The notes under the pieces: model-generated | What the model saw: only the letters and a program-made list of their open reading frames with translations | Told to the model about the DNA's origin: nothing | Database searches by the model: none | Program-made: the position numbers and the translations under genes | Source of the DNA: a virus | Lineage: Duplodnaviria > Heunggongvirae > Uroviricota > Caudoviricetes | Strand: one strand, 5' to 3' | DNA length: 37,884 bases | IMG/VR virus record: IMGVR_UViG_2654587996_000006 | Shown here: piece by piece, positions 10,711 to 33,069 of the stretch | Position numbering within the stretch: the stretch's first letter is position 1 | Layout: the number at the start of each line of letters is the position of its first letter

Positions 10711-10777
10711 GATCATCCCCCTGAATAAAAACCGGGGATGATGCCAGTTAGCCGTAATCGCTGCATTTTCTTAAACG

Positions 10778-12146: not shown

Positions 12147-13687
12147 TATGCAGCCCTCACAATATAGTTAAATGCAATATTCCTTGGTCGAACCCTAAAA
12201 CCAGCCCCTGCGCCTGCTCCAGTTGGTGGCAATTCGATAGAGGGGTATGCTGTTGCAGGGGAATATAAACCTTCACGGGAATCATAATCAGTCGTCATAT
12301 AGTTAGACGTATTATCAGAAACAGTTTCTGTCGGTCTGGTAACCAGACGATAAGAGCCAGTGGTTGGTGACCTGACCAGACCAAAACTTTCAACCAGAGT
12401 GGCTTTTTGAAAGCTTAATAATCCCCGACCACTGTCAGCTCCACGCCCGTCATCCCAGCCACGAATAAACTCACCACGTAAATCAGGCAATTTATTTGTC
12501 GGATAAGCCTTTGCCAGTTCCGGGTATTCTTCAGCAGAAAAAGCTGCACCGTTGCATTTCAGCCAGCCTGTCGGCGGAGTGGCTGAAGGCCATGGAACAG
12601 GTACACCAACAGGTAATGCCGAACCTTCTCCCAAACCAAGGTATGCGAGAAGACCAGCTACATCCTTTCCACTCAAATTAGTCAGCGTATTGTCCAGCGG
12701 TTGTTTACCTGCCAGCGCATTAAGCATTGTCGTGGCAAAGTTCGGATCATTCCCCAGCGCCGCCGCCAGTTCGTTCAGTGTATCTAGGGCCGCAGGTGCA
12801 GAACCCACCATTCCTGCAATCGCCGATTTCACAAAAGCCGTAGTGGCAATCTGTGTATTGTTGACCGACTGCGCCGCCGTGGGGGCTGTTGGCGTTCCGG
12901 TGAGTGCCGGACTCGACAGCGGCGCTTTCAGTGCCAGCGCATTGTTAATGGTGGTACTGAATTTCGGATCATTGTTAATGGCTACGGCTATTTCTTTCAG
13001 CGTGTCCAGCGTGGCTGGCGCACCATTAATAAGAGCCGTCAGTGCCGCCTGAACAAATGCGGTGGTCGCAAGCTGCGTGGTATTATTCCCCGCCGCTGGC
13101 GTTGGCGCTTTGGGGGTTCCGGTAAACGTCGGACTTTCTTTGGGTGCATACTGTGAATGCGGGTCCGGTGCGGCAAGATGTTTTGCCATCAGGTCATCCA
13201 CGTACACCTTCAGCTCCAGTGCCTTGTCATCCACATACTTGCGGGTTGCCAGCACTACAGCAGGGTCGATTTTCAGGGTGATATTGTCCGTACTGCTGGT
13301 AATCAGCACCATGCGCACGGTCTGGGTGCGCCCGCTGCCTTCAGCCAGTTGCGGCTTATAGCTTTCCGGGCAGTTGCCCACGGCAATCAATGCCCCGGAC
13401 TCATCAAACAGGCCCACTTCACGTATCCACCAACCGCCCTCGTTTTCAGGGATCACCTGTTCAGCAATAATCTGGCTGCTGTTCTGCGGGTCGATATAAA
13501 GCATATTCAGCGCAGCCCGGCGTTTCTCATTTACCAGTGCCGTCTGCTTTGCGTCCGGCGTTGGCAATACTCCGCCGCCATCGCCCACCGCCATATGGGT
13601 AATTTTTAGCGGCACACCGAGCGCGGCGGCGCTGGCAAGTTTCGCCGCGCCAATATCCGTCAGCAGGGTATAAAATTTTGTGCTCAT
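12146..13687 (-). CDS. H: tail fibre protein H (constant N-terminus plus currently expressed variable C-terminus)
   Basis: 513 aa; Ala/Thr-rich repeats (TTAFVxxA, NDPxF) typical of tail fibres; the inversion crossover site lies inside the gene at 12625-12639. Confidence 0.9.
   Translation of the reverse strand: MSTKFYTLLTDIGAAKLASAAALGVPLKITHMAVGDGGGVLPTPDAKQTALVNEKRRAALNMLYIDPQNSSQIIAEQVIPENEGGWWIREVGLFDESGALIAVGNCPESYKPQLAEGSGRTQTVRMVLITSSTDNITLKIDPAVVLATRKYVDDKALELKVYVDDLMAKHLAAPDPHSQYAPKESPTFTGTPKAPTPAAGNNTTQLATTAFVQAALTALINGAPATLDTLKEIAVAINNDPKFSTTINNALALKAPLSSPALTGTPTAPTAAQSVNNTQIATTAFVKSAIAGMVGSAPAALDTLNELAAALGNDPNFATTMLNALAGKQPLDNTLTNLSGKDVAGLLAYLGLGEGSALPVGVPVPWPSATPPTGWLKCNGAAFSAEEYPELAKAYPTNKLPDLRGEFIRGWDDGRGADSGRGLLSFQKATLVESFGLVRSPTTGSYRLVTRPTETVSDNTSNYMTTDYDSREGLYSPATAYPSIELPPTGAGAGAGFRVRPRNIAFNYIVRAA
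12625..12639. repeat. right inversion crossover site inside H
   Basis: CTTCTCCCAAACCAA is the reverse complement of 10778-10792. Confidence 0.7.
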
Positions 13688-14289
13688 GGATTCACTCTCA
13701 TTGTGTCAATAACATGGACCGCCCCGCCTTCATGCGCGGTGCCACCGGAAATAATCGTTTCGTTGATATACGGATAGATCGTGATTTCTTCGCCAAGATA
13801 GCTGGCGGCTCCCACCCAATGCGGGCCGCTGGTCTGCAGATTGATGGACATGCCGATCATGTGGCGGCTACATGGTTTGGCATCGCTTATCAGTCGCTCA
13901 AGTTCCAGATAGGTATCTTCAGTGATGCCCTGGTCCTGCACGCCGATATCCAGGCGAAACGTGCCCGGTGCCTCTCCGGTCTGCCACCACTCAATAATGC
14001 GGATCAGAAAGCCGAACGGCTCCACCACCCGCCGCACGGCACTGGTGGTCCCTTTATGCTGATGAATATAAAAAGCATCCTTCACCACCTGGCGTTTGAC
14101 GCTTTCTGTCCAGCCCTCGTCCCAGCGATCCACAGAGAACGCCCAGGCGAGATAAGGCAGGAAACTGACCGGACAGGTTGCCGGATTCCACAAGTCACGC
14201 AGCGGCACCTGCAGATCAGAAATCCCGCTGCAGGTTTGCGCCAGTCGGCGCTCCAGTGGTGTTGAACCCGGTGGCAGCAGACTATTCAT
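13684..14289 (-). CDS. I: baseplate assembly protein I
   Basis: 201 aa; P2 gpI-like, between J and H. Confidence 0.8.
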   Translation of the reverse strand: MNSLLPPGSTPLERRLAQTCSGISDLQVPLRDLWNPATCPVSFLPYLAWAFSVDRWDEGWTESVKRQVVKDAFYIHQHKGTTSAVRRVVEPFGFLIRIIEWWQTGEAPGTFRLDIGVQDQGITEDTYLELERLISDAKPCSRHMIGMSINLQTSGPHWVGAASYLGEEITIYPYINETIISGGTAHEGGAVHVIDTMRVNP

Positions 14290-15190
14290 CCGTTCCTCCG
14301 TTGGTTACGCTCCACTGCGTACATGATGCCGCCTGTGTTTTGTTCAGGACCACATCCGCCAGAGGAGAAGCCAGCTCCACACGCTGCACACCCTCAACAT
14401 GCAGGGCGGCAAAGATGGCGCTACGGCGAATATCCCGACCAAGACGCGTCTGACTGGCGATGTACTTCTGCAGGCTGGCTTTTGCCGCTGCCATTACCGG
14501 CTCTGCTTCCGGTCCAGGATAGAGAAAAATGGTGGCTTCCACGCGATACGGGATGATTTCTGCGCTGCGAACCGTAAGACGGTCAGCCACCGGGCGGACG
14601 TTCTCACTGTTCAGAGCTTTTTCCACCACGTCCAGCAGGTCTTTTTCTGCAGTTCCATCGCCTTCGCGGCTAAGGACAGTCAGCACCACCTCTGCAGGTG
14701 CCGGGCTGGTTGCACTGGCATCCGCCACCCGACCGTCGGCGCTTCGGGCATGAAATTCATAAGCTGCAGTTGGCCCCGCAACTGAAAGCCCTTCAAAGGC
14801 TGCAGGCACACGCAGGCGTAACGCTTCATCGCTTTCCATCACAGCTGCAACGGGCGGCACAGCGTCATTATCAGCAGGCGTCACCGTCAGGCGTTTCACG
14901 TTGTAGTTGGCAGCGAGCTGGTCAAGATCGCTGCCCATCGCGTAAGCCACCATCACAGCCTGCGCGGCTTCGTTAATGCGCTGGCGCAGAAGCAACTCAC
15001 GGTAAGCGTTCTCCTGCAGCAATTTGGTGACGGGTTCAGATTCCAGTTCCAGAGTGCGGATCACTGCTTCCTGCTCATCTTTCGGATGAAGCGCAACAAA
15101 TTCGGCCTTGCGTTCGGCAAGCAGCGTCTCAAAGTCCGGCACATCGACAATCTGCGGCGCAGGCAACTGCGAAAGGTCAATCACTGCCAT
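14282..15190 (-). CDS. J: baseplate assembly protein J
   Basis: ORF 14282-15229; likely start at MAVIDLSQLP (15190), giving about 302 aa as in P2 J. Confidence 0.8.
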   Translation of the reverse strand: MAVIDLSQLPAPQIVDVPDFETLLAERKAEFVALHPKDEQEAVIRTLELESEPVTKLLQENAYRELLLRQRINEAAQAVMVAYAMGSDLDQLAANYNVKRLTVTPADNDAVPPVAAVMESDEALRLRVPAAFEGLSVAGPTAAYEFHARSADGRVADASATSPAPAEVVLTVLSREGDGTAEKDLLDVVEKALNSENVRPVADRLTVRSAEIIPYRVEATIFLYPGPEAEPVMAAAKASLQKYIASQTRLGRDIRRSAIFAALHVEGVQRVELASPLADVVLNKTQAASCTQWSVTNGGTDE

Positions 15191-15536
15191 TCTCTGCTCC
15201 TGTTGATACGGAAAGGGAAACAGGCACACCGTTATTACGCCGCCCGGTCAGCCCCACCACCATTGAACCGTCAAAATTGCTTTTAATGGTGATGGAATCC
15301 AGCGTCAGCCGTGGCTCCCAGCGACTCAGCGCCACATAAACTGCCGACATGACCTGCAGGCGTAATGCCGGATTTTGTGGCTGGTCTATCAGTGTCGACA
15401 GCAGGGAACCATATTCACGACGGGCAATGCGGCTACCCTGCGGTGTCAGTAGAATGTCCCGCACCGACTGACGCAGATGGTCAATATCAGTAATGGCTTT
15501 ACCGCTGGTATTGTTCATCCCGATATAAAGCGTCAT
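15177..15536 (-). CDS. W: baseplate protein W
   Basis: 119 aa; P2 gpW-like, between V and J. Confidence 0.8.
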   Translation of the reverse strand: MTLYIGMNNTSGKAITDIDHLRQSVRDILLTPQGSRIARREYGSLLSTLIDQPQNPALRLQVMSAVYVALSRWEPRLTLDSITIKSNFDGSMVVGLTGRRNNGVPVSLSVSTGAENGSD

Positions 15537-16111
15537 ACCGGGCCTCCGGTTGTATCGCCGCCTTTCAGGACGCCAGTATGCTGATGCGCATCAACCACGA
15601 TCCCGTTAGAACTCATCGCTCCGCCGCCCTGGGTAACGCCACCATTGATCACCACTTCGCTGTTAATGCGCGTGCGGTCAGCCTCCAGTACAAACTCACT
15701 GGTTTTCATGGTGATGTTGTCAGCGGCCTCAATGACCATTGATTTGATGCCCCTGACATACCAGCGCCCGGTGGCGGGTTCGTATTCAAACCAGCCACCG
15801 TCAGGATGTTCTGTCACGCAGGCGTCCGCCGACGTCGACGGTGGTGCGAACTGATTCGAATAGACAGCGGGCAGCGCAAAGGCGGTCTCCAGATTGCCGC
15901 CCAGACTCAGCAGCACCACCTGCTCACCTTCCGATGGTTTCCACCATGTGCGGGCATTACCCGCGCGCAGCGTCAGCCAGTTAATCCAGTTGGTTTCAAG
16001 GTCGCCCGTTTTCACCCGACAAAGCCAGTTTTCCCGGTCCACTTCGGTGACTACCCCAGTGCGGATCAGGTTGGTGATAAGGCGCATGATTTCGGTTAAT
16101 TGTGCGTTCAT
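15533..16111 (-). CDS. V: baseplate spike protein V
   Basis: 192 aa; first gene of the V-W-J-I-H-G operon. Confidence 0.8.
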   Translation of the reverse strand: MNAQLTEIMRLITNLIRTGVVTEVDRENWLCRVKTGDLETNWINWLTLRAGNARTWWKPSEGEQVVLLSLGGNLETAFALPAVYSNQFAPPSTSADACVTEHPDGGWFEYEPATGRWYVRGIKSMVIEAADNITMKTSEFVLEADRTRINSEVVINGGVTQGGGAMSSNGIVVDAHQHTGVLKGGDTTGGPV

Positions 16112-16157
16112 AGGGAAAGGTTGCCATCAGGGGAAGAAAGGCGGCAGTGCTGCAACT

Positions 16158-16175
16158 TGTATCAGTGCTGATACA
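16158..16175 (-). promoter_or_regulatory. Ogr-type late-promoter dyad upstream of V
   Basis: TTGTATCagtgctGATACAAAG centred about 55 bp upstream of the V start codon. Confidence 0.55.
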
Positions 16176-16179: not shown

Positions 16180-16626
16180 TCACCCCGCCAGCCATTGCAG
16201 AATCATGTCGCGGGTCATTGCCTCAACATCATCATTTACACCCAGCAGGCGGCGCTCTGCGTAACGGACCTCCGGTCCTTTGCGACTGACGCGATCACGC
16301 AGGCCGTAATGGTGAACACGGGCAATACGCTGCACCTTGCCTTCAAACTGTACGCTGGCAGAGTCGGCGCTGGCGGCAGTTTTCAGGTATTTTGTGGTGC
16401 GCAGCTTTGCAAACATCTGACGTTTGATGCGCCCCTTCTTGCTGCGTGCTGTTACCCTGCGCGGTTCATAACTGCTGCCATCAGGATTGCGCTGCATCCT
16501 GATATTCTGCTGCTGTGTCCGGCGCAGTTCCTGCGCCAGCTGGCGCATCATGCGGCTTCTGGCGGCTGGTTCCAGATTCGCCAGCAAGGCACTCAACCAG
16601 TCGTCCACCTTCTGCAATTCAGCCAC
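16180..16626 (-). CDS. S: tail completion protein S
   Basis: 148 aa; P2 gpS-like. Confidence 0.8.
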   Translation of the reverse strand: MAELQKVDDWLSALLANLEPAARSRMMRQLAQELRRTQQQNIRMQRNPDGSSYEPRRVTARSKKGRIKRQMFAKLRTTKYLKTAASADSASVQFEGKVQRIARVHHYGLRDRVSRKGPEVRYAERRLLGVNDDVEAMTRDMILQWLAG

Positions 16627-17071
16627 GTTTCACCGTCCACATTTCTTCAGGTTCATCAGGTTCCGCTACCGCTTCAACGTTCGACACACTGCCGTCAGTG
16701 CTGACCAGCACACGCTCTGTCAGTTGCAGGTTAAGGCTGATATCACAGACATCGTTGCGCAGAATATCCACCTCAAAGGTGAATAACTTTTCCCGTAACG
16801 CCGGGTTATTGATGGCATCGGGCTGGTTATCCCGCAACCACAGCAAAACCGGGGCCATCAGCAGATTCTGGTCGCCGCTGAAATCCTCAATCACTGCGTT
16901 CAGGGTGTAACGGTACTCCCATGACATGGAGCTGGCCCCCGTGGCAACCAGCGAACCGTTATCCACAAACAGATGCAGTTTGTCCGGGTTATTGCGGACA
17001 TAAGGCACCGCTTTATTGAGGGCGTGGCGCAGGGATTGTGGTTTGTTCACTGTTTCGCTCCTGACACGCAA
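16619..17071 (-). CDS. R: tail completion protein R
   Basis: 150 aa; P2 gpR-like; overlaps the lysC 3' end. Confidence 0.8.
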   Translation of the reverse strand: MRVRSETVNKPQSLRHALNKAVPYVRNNPDKLHLFVDNGSLVATGASSMSWEYRYTLNAVIEDFSGDQNLLMAPVLLWLRDNQPDAINNPALREKLFTFEVDILRNDVCDISLNLQLTERVLVSTDGSVSNVEAVAEPDEPEEMWTVKRG

Positions 17072-17303
17072 TAATCATGTCCACTTTGTCTGCACAGACC
17101 GCCCAGGCGGCCTCCGTTTCATCCAGCAATGCGTTCAGATCACCGTTAGTGCGCGGCGCTGTCTGATCCAGCCGACACGGCGTCACTCGCGGACAACCAC
17201 TGACGGTAAGCTGCACCTCCGGTGAGTGCCGGACGTTCCCGCAGCCGGATAATGTCAGCAGGCAAAGGAGTATCAGCCCAGCGGCGTAAATCCTCGTTCT
17301 CAC
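17013..17303 (-). CDS. lysC: outer-membrane spanin lipoprotein (LysC/Rz1-like)
   Basis: 96 aa; signal peptide with lipobox LTLSG-C; begins embedded out of frame in lysB, the classic Rz/Rz1 architecture. Confidence 0.7.
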   Translation of the reverse strand: MRTRIYAAGLILLCLLTLSGCGNVRHSPEVQLTVSGCPRVTPCRLDQTAPRTNGDLNALLDETEAAWAVCADKVDMIIACQERNSEQTTIPAPRPQ

Positions 17304-17574
17304 GTTTCAGTTCCTCGATCCGGCGTTGTCGTTGTCTCAGCTGTGCGCTGGTCTGTTCTGCTTCGGCATAGAGCCGCGCCTGCTCCCGGTTATTGGTTTC
17401 AGTCAGAATGGACAGGCTGATAAGCTGGCTGTTGCTCTTTGCCAGTGCCTGGCTTTTGCTCCGAAGCTCGTCTGCCTGCGTGCTGATGGTCTGGCTGGCA
17501 TCAGCCAGCCGCCACGTCTGCCAGCCCAGCGCCGCCAGTAATAACGCCAGCACAACCAGCAGCAACCGGTTCAT
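17146..17574 (-). CDS. lysB: inner-membrane spanin (LysB/Rz-like)
   Basis: 142 aa; N-terminal TM helix followed by a coiled coil rich in charged residues. Confidence 0.75.
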   Translation of the reverse strand: MNRLLLVVLALLLAALGWQTWRLADASQTISTQADELRSKSQALAKSNSQLISLSILTETNNREQARLYAEAEQTSAQLRQRQRRIEELKRENEDLRRWADTPLPADIIRLRERPALTGGAAYRQWLSASDAVSAGSDSAAH

Positions 17575-17948
17575 GCTGCTACCTGTTGCGCCATCTGATT
17601 ACGGGTGATCCAGAAGGCAATAACGGTCAGTAGATAAAAGACCAGGGTAATAGCCCACCCCGTCCAGGCGAGACTGACGACAATCAGCAATCGCATCATC
17701 CAGCTGATAAATACGTTTTCTTTTCGGGTAATTGTCTTCAGCAAAGATGCCCTCAACTCCTGCCAGAGCGGGCCATTCTTAATTAACGCAGCCAGTGCTA
17801 CCGGAATTACCGCCCATGTCAGCAAACAGGCTACCCAAACGCCGGACGCTGCCAGTACCGGAAAAATCCCCTGCGGATACACCATTGCGGCGATTAACAG
17901 CGCCATCCATAACATCAGAAACAGCCCGCTGATTAATTTCTTTTTCAT
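17571..17948 (-). CDS. lysA: LysA-like lysis-timing membrane protein
   Basis: ORF 17571-18020 trimmed to MKKKLISGL; about 4 TM helices; occupies the P2 lysA position after the endolysin gene. Confidence 0.6.
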   Translation of the reverse strand: MKKKLISGLFLMLWMALLIAAMVYPQGIFPVLAASGVWVACLLTWAVIPVALAALIKNGPLWQELRASLLKTITRKENVFISWMMRLLIVVSLAWTGWAITLVFYLLTVIAFWITRNQMAQQVAA

Positions 17949-17949
17949 T

Positions 17950-18462
17950 TCAGTTTGCTCCCTGTAAACACCAGGCCATCTCCCGCGCACGGCGGTTATC
18001 CAGCCCCTGATTAAACACACCTTTTACATAAACCCAGCGCGGCAACTGTCGGCACGCATCCGCCCAGCGCCGCTGATTGAGTAATTTCACCAGCGTGGAA
18101 CTGCAGGCATTGCCCGTACCCACGTTGAAGGCAAACGACACCGCAGCGTCATACACCTTCTGCGGCGGCTGTTGCTTCACACACCTTTCCAGCGCCCGCT
18201 CCACACGCAGCACGTTGGAGATCAGCCCTTCCGCTGCCTGTCGTTCCGTAATGGTTTTGCCTAGAATGACGCCAGATGTATTACCAATGCCGTCGGTCCA
18301 GACACCCGCGCTGCACTGATACGGCTGCAGACGACAGCCTTCGTAATCGGCAATCAGTTTCAGTCCCTCCACGGAGGTGTGAAGCTGCTGAAAACCCGGC
18401 AGCGTGGCAGCAATAGCCAGCACGGCCCCGACAAGGCAGCGTTTAACGATTGATGGATTCAT
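17950..18462 (-). CDS. K: endolysin (phage lysozyme, gpK)
   Basis: 170 aa with an N-terminal hydrophobic segment; P2 K-like. Confidence 0.8.
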   Translation of the reverse strand: MNPSIVKRCLVGAVLAIAATLPGFQQLHTSVEGLKLIADYEGCRLQPYQCSAGVWTDGIGNTSGVILGKTITERQAAEGLISNVLRVERALERCVKQQPPQKVYDAAVSFAFNVGTGNACSSTLVKLLNQRRWADACRQLPRWVYVKGVFNQGLDNRRAREMAWCLQGAN

Positions 18463-18658
18463 AGTCCTCCCGCGAGATCTGCCCGTCGCGCAGAAGCTGG
18501 TAGGCTTTGTGTTTGTAGTACCAGTTGATAGCCAGCATCAGCACACCAATCATCAGGCCGCCCAGCGTTGAGGCATCCTTGATGGACAAATCGCCCAGCC
18601 AGGCCAGCACAACGGCGATGCAGTACGTGATAAAGGCGCTGATTCGCTCAAGCGTCAT
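18443..18658 (-). CDS. Y: holin
   Basis: 71 aa, two TM helices and a charged C-terminus; directly upstream of the endolysin gene. Confidence 0.6.
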   Translation of the reverse strand: MTLERISAFITYCIAVVLAWLGDLSIKDASTLGGLMIGVLMLAINWYYKHKAYQLLRDGQISREDYESINR

Positions 18659-18661
18659 AAT

Positions 18662-18865
18662 TCAGTCCCATAGCTGGACGGTCTGCACGGTGGTGGTGGG
18701 CGGAATGTCCGGCAGCTCCACCGGCAGCCCGTGAGGTAAAAAGGGGCCATATTCGGCAAGCCCCGGATTTGCCTTCAGTACCTGCTCCGTGACCCCCTGC
18801 GTGCGCCCGTAATGACGCCAGCAAAGCGCGTCCACCGTGTCATACTGATGCGCACGCACTTTCAT
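18662..18865 (-). CDS. X: tail protein X
   Basis: 67 aa, same size as P2 gpX; between L and the holin. Confidence 0.8.
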   Translation of the reverse strand: MKVRAHQYDTVDALCWRHYGRTQGVTEQVLKANPGLAEYGPFLPHGLPVELPDIPPTTTVQTVQLWD

Positions 18866-19392
18866 CAGATAAGCTCCACTGTGCAGTGCGGCGCATCCTG
18901 CACCCGGCTGATGGCCCAGCGGGCGTCACGCCACAAATCACCGCTGGATTCCGCCAGTTCCTCGCCTCGCTTCACACCGGATGCCGTGGCGTCATAGTCC
19001 TGGTATCGTTCGTTGAGCATGGCGCGTGCCCAGCAGTAAACTGCGTTGAAATAGTGCTGAATGCGCTCACTTTTGCCGTCCAGCTGTTCCGCCGGAACCT
19101 CAGCCAGCGACGCATACCCCAGCATCTGCTGACGTCTGCGAAACTCATACAGCTCTGCGTTGACCTCCGAAATTGCCGACAGCGCAACCTGCTTTAAACG
19201 CGGCTGCGTCACCGTGCCGTCAGTGCGCATGACACTGCGAAACTCCGACAGGTCCACATCAGGCCAGAACGGCGTATTTCTGATGATTTCCGCCTGTTCC
19301 GGTGCCTGTTCTGGCGCAACAAACTTCATGCTGCTTTCTCCTGAAATAGAGGGCGGTGGACGGGGTTTTGATGTGGCAGTGCCTTTCGCCAC
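18865..19392 (-). CDS. L: head completion/stabilisation protein L
   Basis: 175 aa; P2 gpL-like; start could alternatively be the internal MKFVAPEQ. Confidence 0.75.
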   Translation of the reverse strand: MAKGTATSKPRPPPSISGESSMKFVAPEQAPEQAEIIRNTPFWPDVDLSEFRSVMRTDGTVTQPRLKQVALSAISEVNAELYEFRRRQQMLGYASLAEVPAEQLDGKSERIQHYFNAVYCWARAMLNERYQDYDATASGVKRGEELAESSGDLWRDARWAISRVQDAPHCTVELI

Positions 19393-19424
19393 CCCGTGCC
19401 GCCCGTGCGCGGGGGCACGTTCTG

Positions 19425-20075
19425 TCAGCGGCTGTCATTGCGCAGTCTGCGCTCCAGCTGCTGTTTGTCTTTTTTCACGCCACAGCGGGGATCGAGCTGT
19501 AACGCATGGTTGAGATGATTAAGGGCGGAAGCCGGGTTGCTTTCACTCAGGACAGCGCCAATCGCTTTATGCAGACGCGCCCGTGACTGGTCCGGCATAT
19601 CCATACCGTCTGTCAGCTCCAGGGTCTGCAGCAACAGATCGGCATCAAAGCCGGTGGCGGCAAGCATTGCGCTCTGGGCTGCATCTGCCATTTCCTCTGC
19701 CAGCACGGTCTGCACGTTGCGGTTACCTAACGGCATCACCCAGCCATGACGCAGGGCGTGACGCCCGATCTCCAGCGCCCCGGCATAATCTCCGGCATCA
19801 ATGCGCCACAGCATCACGTACATCAGCACGTCATCCTGCTGTGCGCCTCCGGCAGTCAGGACACCCTCTGCCCAGGCGGCGTACTTCGGCAGCAGTTCCA
19901 CCTTAATCTCCGCTTTTTTGACCGTGGACTGAACGCCCTTGAGACGGCGGCGGTCTTCCGCCAGTTGCAGCAGCATCAGGTCATAGCCCGACGCGTGGCG
20001 AACGCTGCCGCCCTCACGGGCGGCCTGTTCAGCCTGAACGCGCAGGCGATGCTGCCGTGCGGGACTCAGGCTCAT
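19425..20075 (-). CDS. M: terminase endonuclease (small) subunit M
   Basis: 216 aa; follows N in the P2 order O-N-M-L. Confidence 0.8.
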   Translation of the reverse strand: MSLSPARQHRLRVQAEQAAREGGSVRHASGYDLMLLQLAEDRRRLKGVQSTVKKAEIKVELLPKYAAWAEGVLTAGGAQQDDVLMYVMLWRIDAGDYAGALEIGRHALRHGWVMPLGNRNVQTVLAEEMADAAQSAMLAATGFDADLLLQTLELTDGMDMPDQSRARLHKAIGAVLSESNPASALNHLNHALQLDPRCGVKKDKQQLERRLRNDSR

Positions 20076-20078
20076 GGG

Positions 20079-21137
20079 TTACGCTCCGGCTTCTGCTGCA
20101 GCGGCGCTGAAATCGCCAATCTGGATGTTTTCCACCAGTGCGGCGCAGCGGTAGTCCTCAACCACATAGGCTTCGTTAACGGATTCAAAGTTTTCAATCC
20201 GGTCACGTTTCGGGTTGTCGATAACTGAACGGCGGCGGGTGTCTTCCTGCCAGTAGATGGACAGGTTATCCAGACGGGTGATCAGCAGCGCATTCGGCGG
20301 GAAGAACGGCGCACGCACGGCCTGCAGGCCACCCATGCGTTTCTGGCTGATGATCATATCGGCAGCCAGTTTTTCACTGTTTTCCTGCTCTTTGTTGACC
20401 AGCGGGAAATACTTGTCAGACAGCAGTTCACGACCGCAAATCACCACCAGATCGTCATCGTCCTGGTAGACCACGTCGATAAGCTCATTGACGGCATCCA
20501 TCACCACTGCGTCCAGGTTGGCATATTCGCCACCTTTACCGACTTTCACCGCACCCGGTGTGGTTTCACCGCCCGTGGTGGTGCTGCCCATGACGTGATC
20601 CGGTGCATCCTCACGGATTTTCTGCAGCCAGCCTTTGTTCACATCCTGCAGTAGCGGGTTTTCACTACGGTTGGAGGTTTTCGCACGCTTCACGCCGTTA
20701 AAGCCGATCATGATGCGGTCCAGTGCCTGACGTTTCACGATGGCGTCACGGATACGCACCTGGAAATCCTGAAACTTCGCCCACAGGTCCAGCTTCGCGT
20801 AGGTCAGCACCGTGTCAAAGTTGGTCTGCTCGCATTTATATTCCACATCGACCATCAGCGTCGGATCGACAGGTTCACGCTCTTTCGCGGTGGTGTCAGT
20901 GGTTCCGGCAATGGTGCTGCCAACACCCAGCCCCAGCAGCTGACCGGACTGCTCAGTCACTGGCGTGACGTTAATCAGCGTCAGGAAAGCGGCGGACTGC
21001 TGGATCTGGTCTTCCAGCGTCTGCTGTACAGACGGCTCCACGGTGAACTTGCTGGACAGTTCTTCAACTGCCACACCGTTCAGACGCGCCAGCTGCTGCA
21101 GGTAAGCGTTAAAAGCAAAGCGGGTATTCTTCTTCAT
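20079..21137 (-). CDS. N: major capsid protein N
   Basis: 352 aa; P2 gpN-like. Confidence 0.9.
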   Translation of the reverse strand: MKKNTRFAFNAYLQQLARLNGVAVEELSSKFTVEPSVQQTLEDQIQQSAAFLTLINVTPVTEQSGQLLGLGVGSTIAGTTDTTAKEREPVDPTLMVDVEYKCEQTNFDTVLTYAKLDLWAKFQDFQVRIRDAIVKRQALDRIMIGFNGVKRAKTSNRSENPLLQDVNKGWLQKIREDAPDHVMGSTTTGGETTPGAVKVGKGGEYANLDAVVMDAVNELIDVVYQDDDDLVVICGRELLSDKYFPLVNKEQENSEKLAADMIISQKRMGGLQAVRAPFFPPNALLITRLDNLSIYWQEDTRRRSVIDNPKRDRIENFESVNEAYVVEDYRCAALVENIQIGDFSAAAAEAGA

Positions 21138-21153
21138 CAGGTTTTGTGCTCCA

Positions 21154-21987
21154 TCAGCAATTGGTCAGAGTGTCAGCGGGGGCGTTACCGCCTGTTGCAC
21201 GCTGGCGGTAGTCCTGGCGGCTGTCTTCATGGCTCAGCTTGTCCACCAGTTCGTTAAAGGCGGTCTGCTGTGCCTGCAGGGCAGTCTCCAGCTCAGACAG
21301 GCGTTCTTCCTGCTCAGACAGGGATTTTTCGGTGCGCGCACTCAGGTTCTGCTGCTCAGTGGCGACCAGTTCCACGGCCTTATGCACATCAGAGAACCGG
21401 GCGTCATCGGACTGCTCTTTTTTGGTGAACAGCGCCGTGACACGGGCAAACAGGGACGGTTTGTCATCCTGGATTTCTTCCAGTTCGATCACCGTTTCCT
21501 CTGCAGCGGTAAAAAGATTGGCGGGATTCTGCTTGCGGTTTGCCAGCGGGTTATGGGCTGCACTGGCGCTGAATGTCAGCATTTCAGTGCCCAGACTGGC
21601 AGGGTCATCAGTGGCAGCCAGGCCGACCAGGTAGGCTTTGCCCGTATCAGCAAACTTCGGGCTGACTTCCATAGAGGTGAATAATTTCTGGCCTTTTTTC
21701 ACCAGTTCCACCAGGGACTCCGTTGGCTCAACGTCGGCATACAGCGCCATCTTGCCTGCCAGCGGACCTTCCGTGATTTCTTCAGCAAACAGCGCAGTCA
21801 CCTTGCCGTAGCGGTTAAAGGTGCTGTCCGGCAGATAAGACTTGATGTGCTCAAGGTTAATCAGCGCGGTATACACCGCCGGGTTGTAGCTGGCTGCCAT
21901 CTGTTCCAGCCATTCACGCTGGATTTCGCGTCCGTCGGTGGTGGCACCTTCCACCCCGATGCGAAAACGCTTTGCTTTCACTGTCAT
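21154..21987 (-). CDS. O: capsid scaffolding protein O
   Basis: 277 aa with an acidic coiled-coil C-terminal half; first gene of the O operon, divergent from P. Confidence 0.85.
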   Translation of the reverse strand: MTVKAKRFRIGVEGATTDGREIQREWLEQMAASYNPAVYTALINLEHIKSYLPDSTFNRYGKVTALFAEEITEGPLAGKMALYADVEPTESLVELVKKGQKLFTSMEVSPKFADTGKAYLVGLAATDDPASLGTEMLTFSASAAHNPLANRKQNPANLFTAAEETVIELEEIQDDKPSLFARVTALFTKKEQSDDARFSDVHKAVELVATEQQNLSARTEKSLSEQEERLSELETALQAQQTAFNELVDKLSHEDSRQDYRQRATGGNAPADTLTNC

Positions 21988-22065
21988 GAGCCGTGCTCCG
22001 TTAGAAAAAACTTACTGGAGCCTTATGGTTGCGGTGATGGGGGCAGTGAAACAATGCGCGGTATT

Positions 22066-22083
22066 TGTACCAACAACCACACA
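22066..22083. promoter_or_regulatory. Ogr-type late-promoter dyad in the divergent O/P control region
   Basis: TTTGTACCaacaaccaCACACAAAC within the 142-bp O-P intergenic region. Confidence 0.6.
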
Positions 22084-22129
22084 AACCGCAGGCGGGGAAA
22101 GCCTTCATTCAAGGCTGTAGGTTTGTGCC

Positions 22130-23896
22130 ATGAACACCACACTGACACCCGCAGATCTCGATCCCCGTCGGCAGGCCATGCTGCTGTACTTTCAGGGATA
22201 CCGCGTCGCCCGCATTGCTGAAATGCTGGGCGAGAAAGTTGCAACCGTTCACAGCTGGAAAAAACGCGACAAGTGGGGTGACTATGGGCCGCTGGATCAG
22301 ATGCAGCTCACCACCGCCGCACGCTACTGCCAGCTCATTATGAAGGAGCACAAAGAAGGGAAAGATTTCAAAGAAATTGACCTGCTGGCACGCCAGTCTG
22401 AGCGCCACGCGCGGATCGGCAAGTTTAACAATGGCGGCAACGAAGCCGACTTAAACCCTAACGTTGCCAACCGCAACAAAGGCCCACGTCGTCAGCCGGA
22501 AAAGAATGTTTTCACCGATGAACAGATTGAGAAACTGGAAGAAATCTTCCATTCCTCTATGTTCAACTACCAGCGCCACTGGTGGGAAGCCGGAAAAACC
22601 AACCGCATCCGCAACCTGCTGAAGTCACGCCAGATCGGCGCGACCTTTTACTTTGCCCGTGAAGCCCTGATTGACGCCCTGCTGACCGGGCGTAACCAGA
22701 TTTTCCTTTCTGCCAGCAAGGCTCAGGCCCACGTCTTTAAACAGTACATCATCGACTTTGCCAAAGAAGTGGAGGTGGAGCTGAAAGGCGATCCGATGGT
22801 GCTTCCTAACGGGGCCACGCTTTACTTCCTCGGCACCAATGCCCGCACGGCCCAGAGTTACCACGGCAACCTGTATCTGGATGAATATTTCTGGATACCG
22901 AAATTCCAGGAGCTGCGCAAAGTGGCTTCCGGTATGGCTATTCACAAAAAATGGCGACAAACCTATTTTTCCACGCCATCCAGTCTGACACACAGTGCTT
23001 ATCCGTTCTGGTCCGGTGCGCTGTTCAACCGTGGGCGCAACAAAGCCGATAAGGTGGACATCGACCTGTCCCACAGCAATCTGGCCCCCGGCCTGCTGTG
23101 CGCAGACGGGCAATACCGCCAGATAGTCACCGTGGAAGATGCGGTGCGCGGCGGCTGTAACCTGTTCGACCTCGACCAGCTACGCATGGAGTACAGCCCA
23201 GACGAATACCAGAACCTGCTGATGTGCGAGTTTGTGGACGATCTCGCGTCCGTGTTTCCGCTCAGCGAGCTGCAGGCGTGCATGGTGGACAGTTGGGAAG
23301 TCTGGACCGACTTTCATGCACTGGCGCTGCGCCCGTTTGGCTGGCGCGAAGTGTGGATCGGTTATGACCCGGCAAAAGGTACGCAAAACGGCGACAGCGC
23401 TGGATGCGTGGTGGTGGCACCGCCAGCCGTGCCGGGTGGTAAGTTCCGCATTCTTGAGCGTCACCAGTGGCGCGGGATGGACTTCCGCGCCCAGGCTGAC
23501 GCCATCAAAAAACTTACCGAACAGTACAACGTGACTTATATCGGTATCGACTCAACCGGCGTTGGTCACGGGGTTTACGAGAACGTGAAAGCGTTCTTTC
23601 CTGCCGTCCGGGAGTTTGTCTACAACCCCAACGTTAAAAACGCCCTGGTACTCAAGGCCTACGACATTATCAGCCACCGCCGTCTGGAGTTTGACGCCGG
23701 GCACACCGACATTGCGCAGTCATTCATGGCAATCCGTCGCGCAACCACCGCCAGTGGCAACCGCCCAACCTATGAAGCCAGCCGCAGCGAAGAAGCCAGC
23801 CACGCCGATCTGGCCTGGGCAACAATGCACGCACTGTTTAACGAACCACTGCAGGGCGAGTCCGCCAATACCAGTAATATTGTGGAGATTTTTTGA
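22130..23896 (+). CDS. P: terminase ATPase (large) subunit P
   Basis: 588 aa; P2 gpP-like; divergent from O. Confidence 0.9.
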   Translation: MNTTLTPADLDPRRQAMLLYFQGYRVARIAEMLGEKVATVHSWKKRDKWGDYGPLDQMQLTTAARYCQLIMKEHKEGKDFKEIDLLARQSERHARIGKFNNGGNEADLNPNVANRNKGPRRQPEKNVFTDEQIEKLEEIFHSSMFNYQRHWWEAGKTNRIRNLLKSRQIGATFYFAREALIDALLTGRNQIFLSASKAQAHVFKQYIIDFAKEVEVELKGDPMVLPNGATLYFLGTNARTAQSYHGNLYLDEYFWIPKFQELRKVASGMAIHKKWRQTYFSTPSSLTHSAYPFWSGALFNRGRNKADKVDIDLSHSNLAPGLLCADGQYRQIVTVEDAVRGGCNLFDLDQLRMEYSPDEYQNLLMCEFVDDLASVFPLSELQACMVDSWEVWTDFHALALRPFGWREVWIGYDPAKGTQNGDSAGCVVVAPPAVPGGKFRILERHQWRGMDFRAQADAIKKLTEQYNVTYIGIDSTGVGHGVYENVKAFFPAVREFVYNPNVKNALVLKAYDIISHRRLEFDAGHTDIAQSFMAIRRATTASGNRPTYEASRSEEASHADLAWATMHALFNEPLQGESANTSNIVEIF

Positions 23897-24924
23897 TGGG
23901 AAAGAGTAAGAAGAACCGCGCTGCGTCGACGAACCAGATCCAGCATAAAAGTCAAACTACAGCCGAAGCATTCAGCTTCGGTGATCCCGTTCCTGTTCTG
24001 GACCGCCGCGAACTACTGGACTATGTGGAATGCGTACAGACAGATCGCTGGTATGAGCCGCCAGTAAGCTTTGACGGACTGGCGCGCACCTTCCGCGCCG
24101 CCGTGCATCACAGTTCACCAATTGCGGTGAAATGCAACATTCTGACCAGTACCTACATCCCCCACCCGCTGCTCAGCCAGCAGGCTTTTTCACGTTTTGT
24201 GCAGGACTATCTGGTATTTGGTAACGCCTACCTGGAGAAACGCACGAACCGCTTCGGTGAAGTTATCGCCCTTGAGCCTGCTCTGGCAAAATACACCCGA
24301 CGCGGGTTAGACCTGGATACCTACTGGTTTGTGCAATACGGCATGACTACGCAGCCGTATCAGTTCACGAAAGGCAGCATCTTTCATCTGATGGAACCGG
24401 ATATCAACCAGGAGATCTACGGCCTGCCCGGTTATCTTTCTGCCATTCCGTCAGCCCTGCTCAACGAGTCCGCCACGTTGTTCCGCCGTAAGTATTACAT
24501 TAACGGCAGCCATGCAGGCTTCATCATGTACATGACCGATGCCGCGCAGAATCAGGAGGATGTGAACAACCTCCGCAACGCGATGAAAAGCGCCAAAGGT
24601 CCAGGCAACTTCCGCAACCTGTTTATGTACTCACCTAACGGCAAAAAAGACGGGCTTCAGATCATCCCATTGTCAGAAGTCGCGGCGAAGGATGAATTTC
24701 TGAATATCAAAAATGTCAGCCGCGATGACATGATGGCTGCGCACCGCGTACCGCCGCAAATGATGGGGCTTATGCCAAGTAATGTTGGGGGATTTGGGGA
24801 TGTGGAAAAAGCGAGTTTAGTGTTTGTTCGCAATGAGTTAATCCCCCTTCAAAAAAGATTTGAGGAGCTGAATGAATGGATAGAAGAAACAGTAATTAAG
24901 TTTAATGAATATAAATTAAATTGA
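23893..24924 (+). CDS. Q: portal protein Q
   Basis: 343 aa (P2 Q is about 344 aa); 4-nt overlap with P. Confidence 0.9.
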   Translation: MMGKSKKNRAASTNQIQHKSQTTAEAFSFGDPVPVLDRRELLDYVECVQTDRWYEPPVSFDGLARTFRAAVHHSSPIAVKCNILTSTYIPHPLLSQQAFSRFVQDYLVFGNAYLEKRTNRFGEVIALEPALAKYTRRGLDLDTYWFVQYGMTTQPYQFTKGSIFHLMEPDINQEIYGLPGYLSAIPSALLNESATLFRRKYYINGSHAGFIMYMTDAAQNQEDVNNLRNAMKSAKGPGNFRNLFMYSPNGKKDGLQIIPLSEVAAKDEFLNIKNVSRDDMMAAHRVPPQMMGLMPSNVGGFGDVEKASLVFVRNELIPLQKRFEELNEWIEETVIKFNEYKLN

Positions 24925-24970: not shown

Positions 24971-26635
24971 CTATAAATTGAATTTATGCATTCTTAACTC
25001 ATTCAATTTACTCTCTCTAGAAATCTTCATTAAAGCAGCCTTAGCTTTTATAGAAACAGATCTCGTTTTCTCATTTACATTACCAATACGACTAAATTTG
25101 AGACAAGTAGCAACGTGGGATGTTAAATGATTCCCATGCAAACTTTTAAAATAATGATAATAATCATCTTCAGTAGCGCTACTTAATACTTCTATATCAT
25201 CATCATTCCAGCCATTTTTTCCACTGAGCGCATCCAACACCTCACCTAAAGTGCGCTTGGGTGAATCAGTTAGATACACACCTTTAAATTTCTCAATGAT
25301 TTCTGCATCTTTGATTGGTCTAAAAAGATAAAAATTATCCAGATCAAATAACTCTATTTCACTTCGTCTTTCTTGAATATAATACGTAATCATCTCAGAT
25401 GCCTTTGTATCTTCACCTAGTTCACGGAAGACCCCAACAAGGCTATCAAGATCATTAGGAGATACTTGAGTTACACAATCCATAAAGCACTTATAAAAAT
25501 GAGAAACAACTTCTTCTACATTATCATCAAAACTATTATGGAATAAATCCCATGCACTTCTAAATGAGTTTGACTTTTTATTTTCTAAAGCCTGTTTATT
25601 TATAATTTTTATTGCCTCATTAAACTCTGTCATATCTATATAACCATTCCTGACTAGCTTTGCTATTTTCCTATCCAGCTCATCAACCCTTGTAAAATTA
25701 TAGCTCAGTAAAATATCCTTCCATTTTTTTTCTTCTTCTGTTACATCCTTTTTGCCTATTGAGTAAATACTTTCCATAGATTCGAGGAAATCCAAAGAGG
25801 GAACATCCTTATCTGATTTAGAGCAATAATAGGCCCAATTCATTAATACAACCGTATGCAAAAATTGCATTTTAACTTCACTTTCGCACTCTTCAAAAGC
25901 TCGCCATGCATTTTCTACGTTTCGCTCTATTTTCTTTAAAACTCTAATATTTTTGATGCCTAACGAAATAGTATATTGTGCTAACGGCTTATGAAAATCC
26001 TTACTATTATCATATGCTATCTGTGCAGATTCACTGGGCGTAGGTGAAAAATGCAACTCAATGTCAATTACTTTTTCTTTAAACTTTTCATAATCAGCAA
26101 CTTCTTTAGTACCATCATTGAGTAAAAGTATAACCTTACATTTCTTTTGTTCTTTTAACAAAGAAATAAGACCTAATACATCTTTAAGTTCTAATGACGA
26201 TCCTTTACGCTCTAAATCATCTATGCAAATTAATGAATCTGACACAGACATAAATGACCATGCTTCTATTGCAGGAGCGGCAGACTTTATATACGGCAGC
26301 TCTTTCAATTTACTCCACGAACCTCGCCCCAATATTTCAAGCATACCTAATGTATTTTTTCTTAAACTATCTAAACTTGGCTCATGTCCTATGGAGTCTT
26401 TTGAAACTGCATTTTCAAAAATGGAATATTTTAATCTATCTAACGAAGATATACCGAAAAGAGAGACATAGGAATAATGCGAAGCAGAAATCATATTTTG
26501 ACACTTTGCTTCCAGAAGAAACTTATTCCAACTAAATGTCTTACCAACTCCCCACTCTCCTTTAATTGCCATAACCGAAGGGGCTGATTTAGAAACAAAG
26601 TTTAGAATTTGTTCTCGTACCAAGCTTAGCGACAT
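24971..26635 (-). CDS. KAP-family P-loop NTPase (cargo gene, candidate anti-phage factor)
   Basis: 554 aa; Walker A GEWGVGKTF matches the KAP signature GxWGxGKT; Walker B LICIDDLER; strong RBS AAGGAG; visibly AT-rich compared with the flanking phage genes. Confidence 0.8.
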   Translation of the reverse strand: MSLSLVREQILNFVSKSAPSVMAIKGEWGVGKTFSWNKFLLEAKCQNMISASHYSYVSLFGISSLDRLKYSIFENAVSKDSIGHEPSLDSLRKNTLGMLEILGRGSWSKLKELPYIKSAAPAIEAWSFMSVSDSLICIDDLERKGSSLELKDVLGLISLLKEQKKCKVILLLNDGTKEVADYEKFKEKVIDIELHFSPTPSESAQIAYDNSKDFHKPLAQYTISLGIKNIRVLKKIERNVENAWRAFEECESEVKMQFLHTVVLMNWAYYCSKSDKDVPSLDFLESMESIYSIGKKDVTEEEKKWKDILLSYNFTRVDELDRKIAKLVRNGYIDMTEFNEAIKIINKQALENKKSNSFRSAWDLFHNSFDDNVEEVVSHFYKCFMDCVTQVSPNDLDSLVGVFRELGEDTKASEMITYYIQERRSEIELFDLDNFYLFRPIKDAEIIEKFKGVYLTDSPKRTLGEVLDALSGKNGWNDDDIEVLSSATEDDYYHYFKSLHGNHLTSHVATCLKFSRIGNVNEKTRSVSIKAKAALMKISRESKLNELRMHKFNL

Positions 26636-26929: not shown

Positions 26930-27649
26930 TTAGCCAAAGCAGAAACCAATATTGCAATTTGAAACTCCACAGTTGTGAAATTGATGTGGACCGACTCTTA
27001 GCTTGTGTTCGTCTCCTACAATCCGAGTCCCCTTAACCAACATATCTAATCTTTCCACAATCAATCTTTCAGGCGCATCAACTTTAATAATTAAACGAGG
27101 ACCTTTCCTTTTTTCTATAATAGTTATTCTAGGACCAACAACCTGAACATCCCAATGCCTTGCACTACAAACCCACTCATTCTTAATTAATTCAAGATTA
27201 ACAATACCTTGACTATCGTAAAATTTACCCGAAATAAGAAAAGCATTATTTTCTTTTTCAATGGTTAACAATGGCTCATTTTGAAACATTATTGGTACAG
27301 TACAGGATTCAAATGTCGCACCACCAAATATTATTGTTGGATGCCTATCAGAAAAGTCCAATATATCGGCCACATTCCCTTTTTGTAAGGCTGCAGGAGA
27401 TTCCATTGCTTTAATTATTTTCTCTTTAGAGTAAAGACGTTTCGTTACTTTCGCATGGCACGTAGGACAAAGTAGTGCTATTGCATTTGGAGAGTGCTCC
27501 TTTGCATCAGCGTATGTGGGAATTACATGCTCATACTCAACAATGGGAGAAGCACAAACAACGCAACCAAAGCCACAGCGCTGCCTTACCTCCAGTTTTA
27601 CAGGTTCAGGAATTGTTCTAGATAACCCATGCTTGTTAATAGTTGTCAT
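26930..27649 (-). CDS. HNH endonuclease-motif protein (cargo gene)
   Basis: 239 aa; N-terminal CGFGCVVC ... EYEHVIP ... N ... CPTCH, the Cys4/His-Asn-His layout of HNH nucleases; AT-rich. Confidence 0.7.
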   Translation of the reverse strand: MTTINKHGLSRTIPEPVKLEVRQRCGFGCVVCASPIVEYEHVIPTYADAKEHSPNAIALLCPTCHAKVTKRLYSKEKIIKAMESPAALQKGNVADILDFSDRHPTIIFGGATFESCTVPIMFQNEPLLTIEKENNAFLISGKFYDSQGIVNLELIKNEWVCSARHWDVQVVGPRITIIEKRKGPRLIIKVDAPERLIVERLDMLVKGTRIVGDEHKLRVGPHQFHNCGVSNCNIGFCFG

Positions 27650-28357: not shown

Positions 28358-30772
28358 TTAATACAGGTTCCGCCACTTATCATCTTCCCGCAAACGCTGG
28401 TTCCGATAGAAGATACGCAGGCCTGCTCCTGACGGAATACTGCCGCCGCGAAGGAGTAAATCGACCTCTTTCTCGCTACCATCAAATCCTCTGGACTTCA
28501 GCTCATAGACGAGCTGCAGTCGCTGATGGTCTGTAATTCGCTGTTTGTAGTCTTTACGCCGTATCGGTTTAACCAGGCGTAGCCTTGCTGCCAGTTCCCG
28601 GCGCTCTTTTTTGCTCATACTGTGCAGGAAATCGTGCAACTCCTTGTCATCCATGCTGATAATATCCGTTCTGGGGTCCCCATCTGCTGATTTATCTTTC
28701 TCCTGTTGGTTCAAATTTTCAGCAAGGGGACAGTTATTGCCACGAGTCCAAGGGGCGCAAGCGCCCTGGTCGGCTACCGCCTCCTGAACGTCAACGGCTT
28801 TACGAACCATTTTCCACTTCACTGCATGAGTGCAGATCTTGCCCTCTGCAATGGGTGACCAGATGCCATAAATACGAATACCGTGATCGCCATAAGCGGT
28901 CGGCTCTTCGTTAATTTCATAAGCTGTTCTGATAAGGTGATATTTGCGGGGAACCAGTACGCCGCCCTGCTTCATGATGTAGGTGGCAAAACAGCCAGCA
29001 TCAGCGGCAGCCAGGATGGCATCAAGGCGCGGGTCATCCAGTACCGGCGCACCTGCTTTTTTGTCACCCTGTTGCCTTGCCGCCTGACCAGCCAGCAAGC
29101 GAAGTTCACGGTACGCCTGACGCCCCGGAATACCAAAGAAGCGGAACTGCTGAACACGATGCAGAGACGCCCAGGCATTAACGTATTCGGCGTTATCACG
29201 CAGGGATTTACCCGTTTCCTTGCTGATCTCGCCAGCCAGACCACGTCCGTCAATGTTCTTACTGATGTATTTCGCGATGTAGCTTGTCGGCGTTCCTTTG
29301 CGCGGGTTTATCAGCTCAGACTTAAAGCGTGGACCCGTGTTATTGCCCAGTTCCTCGCGGTCTTCACGGATGGCAAACTTACGCAACAATGCAGTAATGG
29401 CGCGGCGGTCTTTTTTGCGCATGAAACACATGAGATGCCAGTGCACAGTACCGTCATGGTGCGGCTCAGCCACCCGCACGCCATACCAGCGCAACCCGGC
29501 TTTGTGCATAGCCTTACGAAATGCAGCAAACATGCCGACCAGATAATCGCTGCTTTGTCTTACCGTCGCATTTGTCCAGGTTGGGTTTGGTCTGCCGTTA
29601 TTGAGCGTAGAATGGAAACGTGACGGACAGGTAATGGTGTAGAAAACGGCGCAGTCACCACGCATTTCCGCGATAAGCTCCAGACCTTTAACACAGGCCA
29701 TCATCTCATTGCGGCGGTGCGCCGGGTTGCTGCTGCTGGCGTTTACCACGTCTTCCATATCCAGCGTGTCGCCGTCTTCGTTCACCAGTTCATGAGAACG
29801 GAAAAACTCCAGCGACTTGCGGCGCTGCTCACGTTTATGCGTCACTGCTTCATAGCTGACATAGGGAGATGCTTTTTTGCTGACCAGGCAGACAGCACGC
29901 AACTGCTCTTCCCGCCATTCGCAACGTATCTTCCACAATTTTCGATACCACCAGTCGGCGCAAAGCATACGTGCCAGCGAACCCGGTATGAGTTCATAGG
30001 GCACGGGTTTGCGGCGGTTTCTTTTCCGACGGAGTTTCTCAAACGCAGGCGGGATAACATCCAGACGCAGGGTTTCCGCTGCCACCTTTTCCCATGTCTT
30101 GCGGATTTCTTCTGGCTTAACGTCATCGGAGGCATACAAATCACCACAAGCGGCCTCAAGACACATGCTCATATGCGCTGCTACCAGGGTGGACAGGCGT
30201 TTTACCTGATCCTGACTCATTTCAGGCAGGATCAGCAGGCCCTCAAGCCCTTGATGGCTTGCCATAAAACGGAAAGAAGCGGATAGCTGACTGTCGCGTA
30301 CATACTCCAGTCGCTCCAGACATGGCTTAATCGTCTCACGCAAATAGCGGGAATAAGCCTTTGGCCTGCCCAGGCTGCTGAAGTATTCGATACGTTGCAT
30401 CAGCGGCTTGCTGATGTGGGTGGGCTGGGCGCTGACGTCCGCCAGAATGACCATGTCCGGGTTAAAACGCTGCTGCTCATGCGCCAGCTTTGCCCGACTA
30501 ATGAGATTATCCTGCTCCATTTCGCGCTGGACAGGATCACGGGATTCATTAAAGAAATAACGCTCCCAGACCTGCTCACTCAGTGCATCGCGGCGCAGCT
30601 GTTCCTGCTCGTTATCGGCAGCGTACAGAGTGATCATGTTTGAAAGTGCAGACTCCGGCGCAACTTCCGCCGGGTCCAGATAAGGGTTAATGGCCTTTTT
30701 CGGGCCGTTCCATGAAAATGCTGCAGCGGCCTCGTTAAAGCCGCTAGAGTTGCTCATATCGTCATGACTCAT
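28358..30772 (-). CDS. A: replication initiation protein A (HUH rolling-circle endonuclease)
   Basis: 804 aa; HUH-type motif GTVHWHLM and tyrosine motif YIAKYISK; P2 gpA-like. Confidence 0.85.
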
Positions 30773-32829: not shown

Positions 32830-32889
32830 ATCCAGCCGTGACCGTAGTGCATTGCCGGGCTTTGTTTTACCAGCAGCGATGCAAATGAT
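32830..32889. repeat. 60-bp direct repeat, copy 1
   Basis: 59 of 60 nt identical to 33633-33692 (atccagccgtgaccgtagtgcattgccgg[g/a]ctttgttttaccagcagcgatgcaaatgat). Confidence 0.85.
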
Positions 32890-32979
32890 TGTGCCGGGAA
32901 TTTTTCTACACGCCCGGCGCGTGCCTCAGTGGTAGACTATTTGTGCTAACAATCATCTACCCCTCAAAGGAGAAAACTG

Positions 32980-33060: not shown

Positions 33061-33069
33061 GAATCCGGC

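Follow-up and report, generated by a model that had tools for sequence, protein, structure and literature searches.

The late genes of phage P2 form four operons, P-Q, O-S, V-G and FI-D, and its RefSeq record annotates a single activator binding site for the pO and pP promoters together, from the centre of which the P and O starts each lie 55.5 bp away, a pV site for which the start of the V operon is the first base of the V CDS, and a pF site with starts 56.5-58.5 bp from its centre. In phage 186, whose late promoters p12/pV, p32 and pJ work with the activator B, one B-protein site is recorded for the divergent pV/p12 and one for pJ, with starts 55.5-57.5 bp from the centres. Delta of the P4 satellite, which acts at the promoters Psid and PLL, is an Ogr homologue that works on sites of the TGT-N12-ACA class. 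The P2 late promoters have a weak -10 element and no -35 element, and the activator, a 72-aa protein with the pattern CX2CX22CX4C, is encoded after D. [quoted passage not shown]

Judged from its sequence, the window, i.e., the whole stretch of 37,884 nucleotides that we analysed (IMG/VR record IMGVR_UViG_2654587996_000006), is a complete P2-like prophage of the SopEPhi/Fels-2 group (Felsduovirus). A gene map built from tblastn searches with P2 proteins and from Pfam scans (Table 1) yielded the same set of operons as in P2, with the late genes on the minus strand and the orientation reversed relative to the P2 map. The genes that flank the sites described below encode the gpP terminase, the gpO scaffold, gpV, gpS and the FI sheath protein, and the identities that a sequence-only reading of this DNA had given to ogr, P, O, V and FI were borne out by both Pfam and tblastn. 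The closest sequence relatives are SopEPhi/Fels-2-type prophages and the Klebsiella Gegevirus. At the P/O junction, nucleotide identity is 99% to an E. coli prophage and 90% to Salmonella SopEPhi (Felsduovirus), the P protein of which is 97% identical to the window's. P2 and 186 are far more distant (39-68% identity of late proteins and 51-55% of Ogr); the immunity region is of the 186 type, with homologues of CI, CII and Fil.

Table 1. Positions of genes, dyads and predicted promoter elements in the window
Feature	Position	Strand	Remarks
ogr homologue, 72-aa C4 zinc-finger protein, presumed dyad binder	2856-3074	-	Pfam, tblastn
ogr	2859-3074	-	gene map
Candidate sigma-70 ogr promoter, TTTGCA-16-TATCAT	3112-3139	-	consensus scan of the D-ogr gap
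D to FI	3168-10002	-	gene map
FI -10-like hexamer, CAACAT	10039-10044	-	predicted start ~10032; leader ~30 nt
FI dyad, TTGTACCGTTATTCACACAA	10078-10097	.	centre 10087.5; FI operon FI FII E T U D, minus strand
Serine invertase	10144-10716	-	gene map; Resolvase + HTH_7
H to V	12146-16111	-	gene map
V -10-like hexamer, CAACCT	16118-16123	-	predicted start 16111, the A of the V ATG
V dyad, TTGTATCAGTGCTGATACAA	16157-16176	.	centre 16166.5; V operon V W J I H G, minus strand
S to O	16180-21987	-	gene map
O -10-like element, CAACCA, or AACCAT one base on	22025-22031	-	predicted start ~22018-22019; leader ~32 nt
O/P dyad, TTGTACCAACAACCACACAA	22065-22084	.	centre 22074.5; common to divergent O (leftward, -) and P (rightward, +)
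P -10-like hexamer, TAGGTT	22118-22123	+	predicted start 22130, the A of the P ATG
P	22130-23896	+	gene map
Q	23893-24924	+	gene map
A	28358-30772	-	gene map
186-type cI / cII / fil	33.5-35.2 kb		gene map
int	36754-37884	+	gene map

Several further features were seen while the map was drawn. Positions 1-2855, at the left end, come from the host and include an Asp-Al_Ex/TrkA_C transporter gene at 935-2620 (+); somewhere between 2620 and 2856, just past ogr, host sequence gives way to the prophage, and the window ends exactly at the stop codon of int. In the tail region, the serine invertase adjoins an opposite-strand ORF for a tail-fibre C-terminus (10738-11127, +), which is followed by a tail-fibre assembly ORF (11129-11572, +) and by a second assembly gene on the expressed strand (11544-12146, -), so arranged that the segment 10144-12146 looks like an invertible host-range segment of the Gin/Cin type. 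The stretch between cI and int (35421-36752) encodes a KAP-family P-loop NTPase, and between Q and the DinI/replication genes are a weakly KAP_NTPase-like protein of 554 aa (24971-26635) and an HNH-domain protein (26930-27649); these three cargo genes are possibly anti-phage defence genes. Finally, fil is split by an 803-bp AT-rich insertion (window 32830-33695), at the borders of which 63 nt of fil are directly repeated with 97% identity. The insertion encodes a 152-aa ORF at 33070-33528 (+) that has no Pfam match and is preceded by a small ORF at ~32961, and it looks like a moron.

The sequence-only reading had placed three conserved late-promoter activator dyads at 10079-10096, 16158-16175 and 22066-22083. 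All three are present there, with the TGT-N12-ACA cores TGTACCGTTATTCACACA, TGTATCAGTGCTGATACA and TGTACCAACAACCACACA, respectively, and, as it had also said, they share flanking bases: a T and an A border every core, so that all three sites are TTGT-N12-ACAA. Following TTGT, the six half-sites of the three dyads continue ACC, ATC or GTG. The fuller consensus that had been proposed, TTGTAyC-N-CAyACAAA, breaks down at the V site, the right half of which is GATACAAA and not CAyACAAA, while the dyads themselves stand. The sites, each an element of TGT-N12-ACA dyad symmetry, lie upstream of the P, O, V and F operons, and one of them is common to the divergent P and O. The V dyad begins 3 nt past the stop codon of S, and the FI dyad sits between the stop codon of the invertase and FI, just downstream of that stop. 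The one dyad of the O/P gap would serve both directions, as is annotated for P2 and 186, and three dyads therefore make up the full complement for four late promoters.

How often such motifs arise by chance bears on whether the three sites are nothing but chance matches to a loose motif, picked out where the reader expected them. It had been conceded from the start that the core alone would occur several times in a sequence of this length, and the count agrees: TGT-N12-ACA was found 11 times against 10.4 expected. Nor was TTGT-N12-ACAA enriched in the window when one mismatch was allowed (17 matches vs. 19.5 expected), and one of the exact matches, the fourth, falls in a coding region. These core-only and one-mismatch counts, which show no enrichment, cannot carry the claim. 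The exact TTGT-N12-ACAA occurs four times against 0.56-0.86 expected, a number that 10 out of 1000 first-order Markov simulations attained. When the half-sites are extended to TTGTRYS-N6-SRYACAA, a form that was defined after the sites had been seen, the motif is found at the three dyads only, with 0.01 expected. Occurrence of the extended motif at similar frequency inside coding regions had been named as the outcome that would count against the sites; none was found there, and the sole coding match is to the shorter pattern.

Position is a stronger argument than motif counts. Each of the gaps upstream of the late operons holds one exact dyad (O/P, 142 bp; S/V, 68 bp; invertase/FI, 141 bp), and the joint chance of an exact dyad in all three is ~2.4e-9. 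The dyads had been put at about 55-90 bp from the operon starts, in agreement with the centre-to-ATG distances measured here (FI, 85.5; V, 55.5; O, 87.5; P, 55.5). Considering that an exact dyad in three specific gaps has a joint probability of ~2e-9 and that the half-sites are invariant and their positions fixed over dozens of diverged or replaced upstream regions, we regard the probability of chance matches as negligible. Two further matches were set aside. The fourth exact TTGT-N12-ACAA (33415-33434), within ORF 33070-33528 of the AT-rich insertion in fil, was rejected as an activator site: its half-sites do not extend to RYS, no gene begins at a distance of 55-90 bp from it, and one such match does not exceed what chance would give. 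Across the start codon of P lies another TGT-N12-ACA core (22124-22141); since its TGT is changed to TGG in 18 of 46 distinct relatives, it is taken to be a chance match.

The dyads also stand in a fixed relation to the putative promoters. In all four, a -10-like hexamer (CAACCA for O, TAGGTT for P, CAACCT for V and CAACAT for FI) lies exactly 43.5-48.5 bp from the dyad centre; its second base is A in every case and its sixth is T in three cases. These -10 elements are weak, and no -35 element is recognisable. The same hexamer offset occurs at P2 P (+55.5), P2 O (+55.5), 186 P/p12 (+55.5) and 186 O/pV (+56.5), with TAGCCT in both P2 and 186 at the offset of the window's TAGGTT on the P side and GAAACT in both on the O side. 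From this geometry and from homology, the starts in the window are predicted at +55.5, and the annotated starts of P2 and 186 lie 55.5-58.5 bp from their dyad centres. In the predicted FI leader, AGGAGG precedes the FI ATG (10002). Neither in the O/P gap nor on the FI strand did a scan for the sigma-70 consensus detect a canonical promoter, as would fit activator-dependent promoters that have no -35 element. On the other strand of the FI gap, two overlapping sigma-70-like matches were seen at 10099-10137 (+), ATGACG-18-GATAAT and TTGTCT-17-AATAAT, which are directed not at FI but at the 3' end of the invertase gene, to which they are antisense; given the AT-richness of the stretch, they may be due to chance. 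A transcriptomics paper on Salmonella prophages (PMC7067206) gives no late-promoter start sites.

Conservation was assessed in 80 related loci each for P, V and FI taken from IMG/VR, from which we compared 46 distinct sequences for O/P, 26 upstream of V (25 in the alignment) and 62 upstream of FI. The relatives are phylogenetically non-independent, and counts of distinct sequences hence overstate the number of independent observations; replacements of the DNA upstream of V are the exception and come close to independent trials. In the O/P gap, TTGT, C, CCA and ACAAA are invariant in 46/46 distinct sequences, the 6-nt centre of the spacer being the most variable stretch of the entire gap. CCTTATG (plus strand), in the -10 region of the O promoter, is nearly invariant in the same relatives, and the P hexamer offset is occupied by TAGGTT, TATGTT or TAGGCT. 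Between the O/P dyad and the P hexamer, the inverted repeat AGCCTTcattcAAGGCT at 22100-22116 was considered as a hairpin and rejected, its z-score against shuffles being -0.07; the stem is not kept in SopEPhi-type relatives. The GGGGAAAGC block that flanks this repeat (~ -38 to -30 of P) is largely conserved.

Upstream of V, many prophages have exchanged the stretch between S and V for unrelated sequence, giving ~11 mutually unalignable versions. TGT-N12-ACA is nonetheless present in 26/26 distinct sequences, the unalignable replacements included, with its centre 54.5-57.5 nt before the V ATG and at exactly 55.5 nt in 19 of the 26. Indeed, no base upstream of the ATG is invariant other than those of TGT, those of the ACA at N12 spacing from it, and the final T of the hexamer; nAnnnT describes this hexamer in 22 of the 26, and the remaining four fit one base further. 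At FI, TTGT-N12-ACA is invariant in all 62 distinct sequences, and every one of them has a hexamer ending in AT at +43.5..48.5 (GAACAT, CAACAT, TACCAT and similar), while the distance from the dyad to the ATG varies from 78.5 to 85.5. Since the hexamer is fixed to the dyad and the distance to the ATG is variable, the constraint is on the dyad-to-promoter spacing and not on the dyad-to-gene spacing.

The relatives also bear on whether the inverted repeats might act as nucleic-acid hairpins, e.g., in terminating or processing the O-operon transcript just after S. The V dyad gives this idea its footing, as it is a perfect 9-bp palindrome 3 nt past the S stop codon and folds at -9.8 kcal/mol (z = -2.05). 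The FI dyad, however, does not fold (-2.5 kcal/mol, z = +1.3), no T-run follows the sites, and the same element also precedes a pair of divergent genes, a place at which transcripts would not be expected to terminate. Moreover, what the relatives keep is TGT and ACA only; their inner arms are not complementary (e.g., TTGTACCATCGATACCACAA upstream of V). We therefore consider a role as hairpins extremely unlikely. In comparison, the reading that a P2-family (Felsduovirus) prophage uses the three dyads as upstream activator sites for its four late promoters is supported by annotated P2 and 186 sites at homologous places, by the same geometry and by conservation in relatives, and we hold it to be very probably correct.

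A cognate Ogr/Delta zinc-finger gene is present in the same genome. The sequence-only reading had named an Ogr/B-type activator encoded at 2856-3074, and this was confirmed by a match of the ORF at 2856-3107 (-) to the Pfam family Ogr_Delta (PF04606) at 6.7e-22 and by the zinc-finger cysteines C4, C7, C30 and C35, which form CX2CX22CX4C. The 72-aa protein begins MMICPLCGSAAHTRSS and aligns over its full length with Ogr, B and Pag; identity is 51% to P2 Ogr over all 72 aa (55% over residues 1-67) and 54% to 186 B. The candidate sigma-70 promoter in the gap between D and ogr (Table 1) occupies the position that the ogr/B promoter has in P2 and 186, and it is weak, one match having been found where one is expected by chance. 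The analysis itself establishes where the sites lie, how they are conserved and spaced from the hexamers, and that an activator gene is present.

We also weighed whether the dyads might bind a factor other than the Ogr homologue, such as a host global regulator or another phage protein, e.g., a CI-type repressor or Apl/Cox. CRP-family proteins, too, use TGT/ACA half-sites, and the site of PpsR/CrtJ in phototrophs is TGT-N12-ACA. The CRP spacing, however, is TGTGA-N6-TCACA and not N12, and PpsR/CrtJ is not enterobacterial; that its site, too, is written TGT-N12-ACA is coincidental. At the homologous places, the records of P2 and 186 give Ogr/B sites with mapped starts, and the motif goes together with ogr homologues: SopEPhi, Gegevirus, P2, 186 and PSP3 have both, whereas in phiCTX no Ogr homologue was detected and different short repeats are annotated in the P/O gap and the gap upstream of FI (two of three). 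For want of a detected Ogr homologue, phiCTX is otherwise unusable for comparison. Taken together, we judge a different binder very unlikely and keep to the Ogr homologue as the protein that would act at the dyads.

Work on P2, 186 and P4 is the basis from which we infer binding by the Ogr homologue, its contact with the alpha C-terminal domain and the actual start sites, and it suggests the following circuit. Upon induction, the 72-aa protein of the Ogr/B/Delta family encoded at 2856-3074 would accumulate and, by analogy, would bind every TTGT-N12-ACAA dyad, probably as a symmetric oligomer. Bound ~55 bp upstream of a start, it may recruit the host sigma-70 RNA polymerase through the alpha C-terminal domain, as its P2 counterpart does, to promoters that would offer a weak -10-like hexamer only, without a -35 element. 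The O/P dyad would act both ways, driving the O operon (head, lysis) leftward and P-Q (terminase, portal) rightward; the dyad beginning at 16157 would drive the V operon (baseplate, fibre), and the one at 10078 the FI operon (sheath, tube, tail). Given that the dyads of the window are perfect, that the second half of the P2 and 186 sites is degenerate and that the Ogr homologue is 51-55% identical to its counterparts, stoichiometry and the use of half-sites may differ from those in P2 and 186.

The geometry makes a further prediction about translation. For both V (16111) and P (22130), the ATG is exactly 55.5 bp away from the dyad centre and the hexamer occupies -12..-7, and no conserved Shine-Dalgarno sequence was found before P or V in related sequences. 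Since the predicted starts fall on the A of these ATGs, both mRNAs are predicted to be leaderless. For V this agrees with the P2 annotation; for P it differs, as P2 has a 23-nt leader with a GAGG Shine-Dalgarno sequence before P, where the window has the P ATG at the predicted start. The P homologue of 186, orf12, likewise has a 23-nt leader, and the same arrangement, with GAGG, is seen in P2, 186, PSP3 and BIS20. On the other side, the window has TAGGTT or, in its relatives, TATGTT, then 6 nt, then ATG, and TAGnnT-N6-ATG recurs in SopEPhi, Gegevirus, a Yersinia Graikaemvirus and Ralstonia RSA1. On these patterns we lean, if only slightly, towards a P mRNA that is leaderless in this lineage, like that of V, with the O/P dyad giving two divergent starts at +/-55.5 bp. 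If this is true, leaderless first genes of two late operons would be common, and possibly ancestral, in P2-like phages, and P2 and 186 would be the exception for P.

The dyads are a new instance of a well-known regulatory element, i.e., textbook biology and no new biology; the sole mildly new point would be the leaderless translation of P, besides V, that sequence comparison suggests across much of the family. Their value lies in annotation, since they fix the four late promoters and the circuit (ogr to three dyads to four operons) of a type of prophage that is very common in E. coli, Klebsiella and Salmonella. They also provide a search rule for the late promoters of P2-like prophages: TTGT-N12-ACAA, then, starting 44 bp from the dyad centre, a hexamer whose second base is A and whose sixth is usually T. 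The exact N12 rule is not universal in Peduoviridae, as the P/O gap of Ralstonia RSA1 has TTGTGGAATCGCGCGCCACAA, i.e., TGT-N13-ACA and seemingly an N13 spacing, and no clear dyad was found in the P/O gap of Burkholderia phiE12-2.

Compared with the described systems, the window departs from P2 and 186 in the sites themselves. P2 sites have a degenerate second half (TTGTG-N10-GCCAa, with pV effectively N11) and those of 186 are TGT-N12-CCA, in contrast to the perfect TTGT-N12-ACAA found here. The neighbouring genes differ as well: P2 has orf30 between S and V and fun(Z) before FI, where the window has a 68-bp S/V gap and the invertase. Unlike P4, the window holds no P4-like element or delta gene. 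The agreement is closest with SopEPhi and Gegevirus, in which the gaps have the same lengths as in the window (142 and 68 bp), TTGT-N12-ACAA occurs at the same positions, and the ATGs of P and V lie 55.5 bp from the dyad centres (57.5 for V of Gegevirus), although the spacers and inner half-site bases differ, Ogr is 61-68% identical and the cargo genes are different. The V site illustrates this well: TTGTGCCA..TGGCACAA in SopEPhi stands where the window has TTGTATCAG..CTGATACAA, and both are palindromic.
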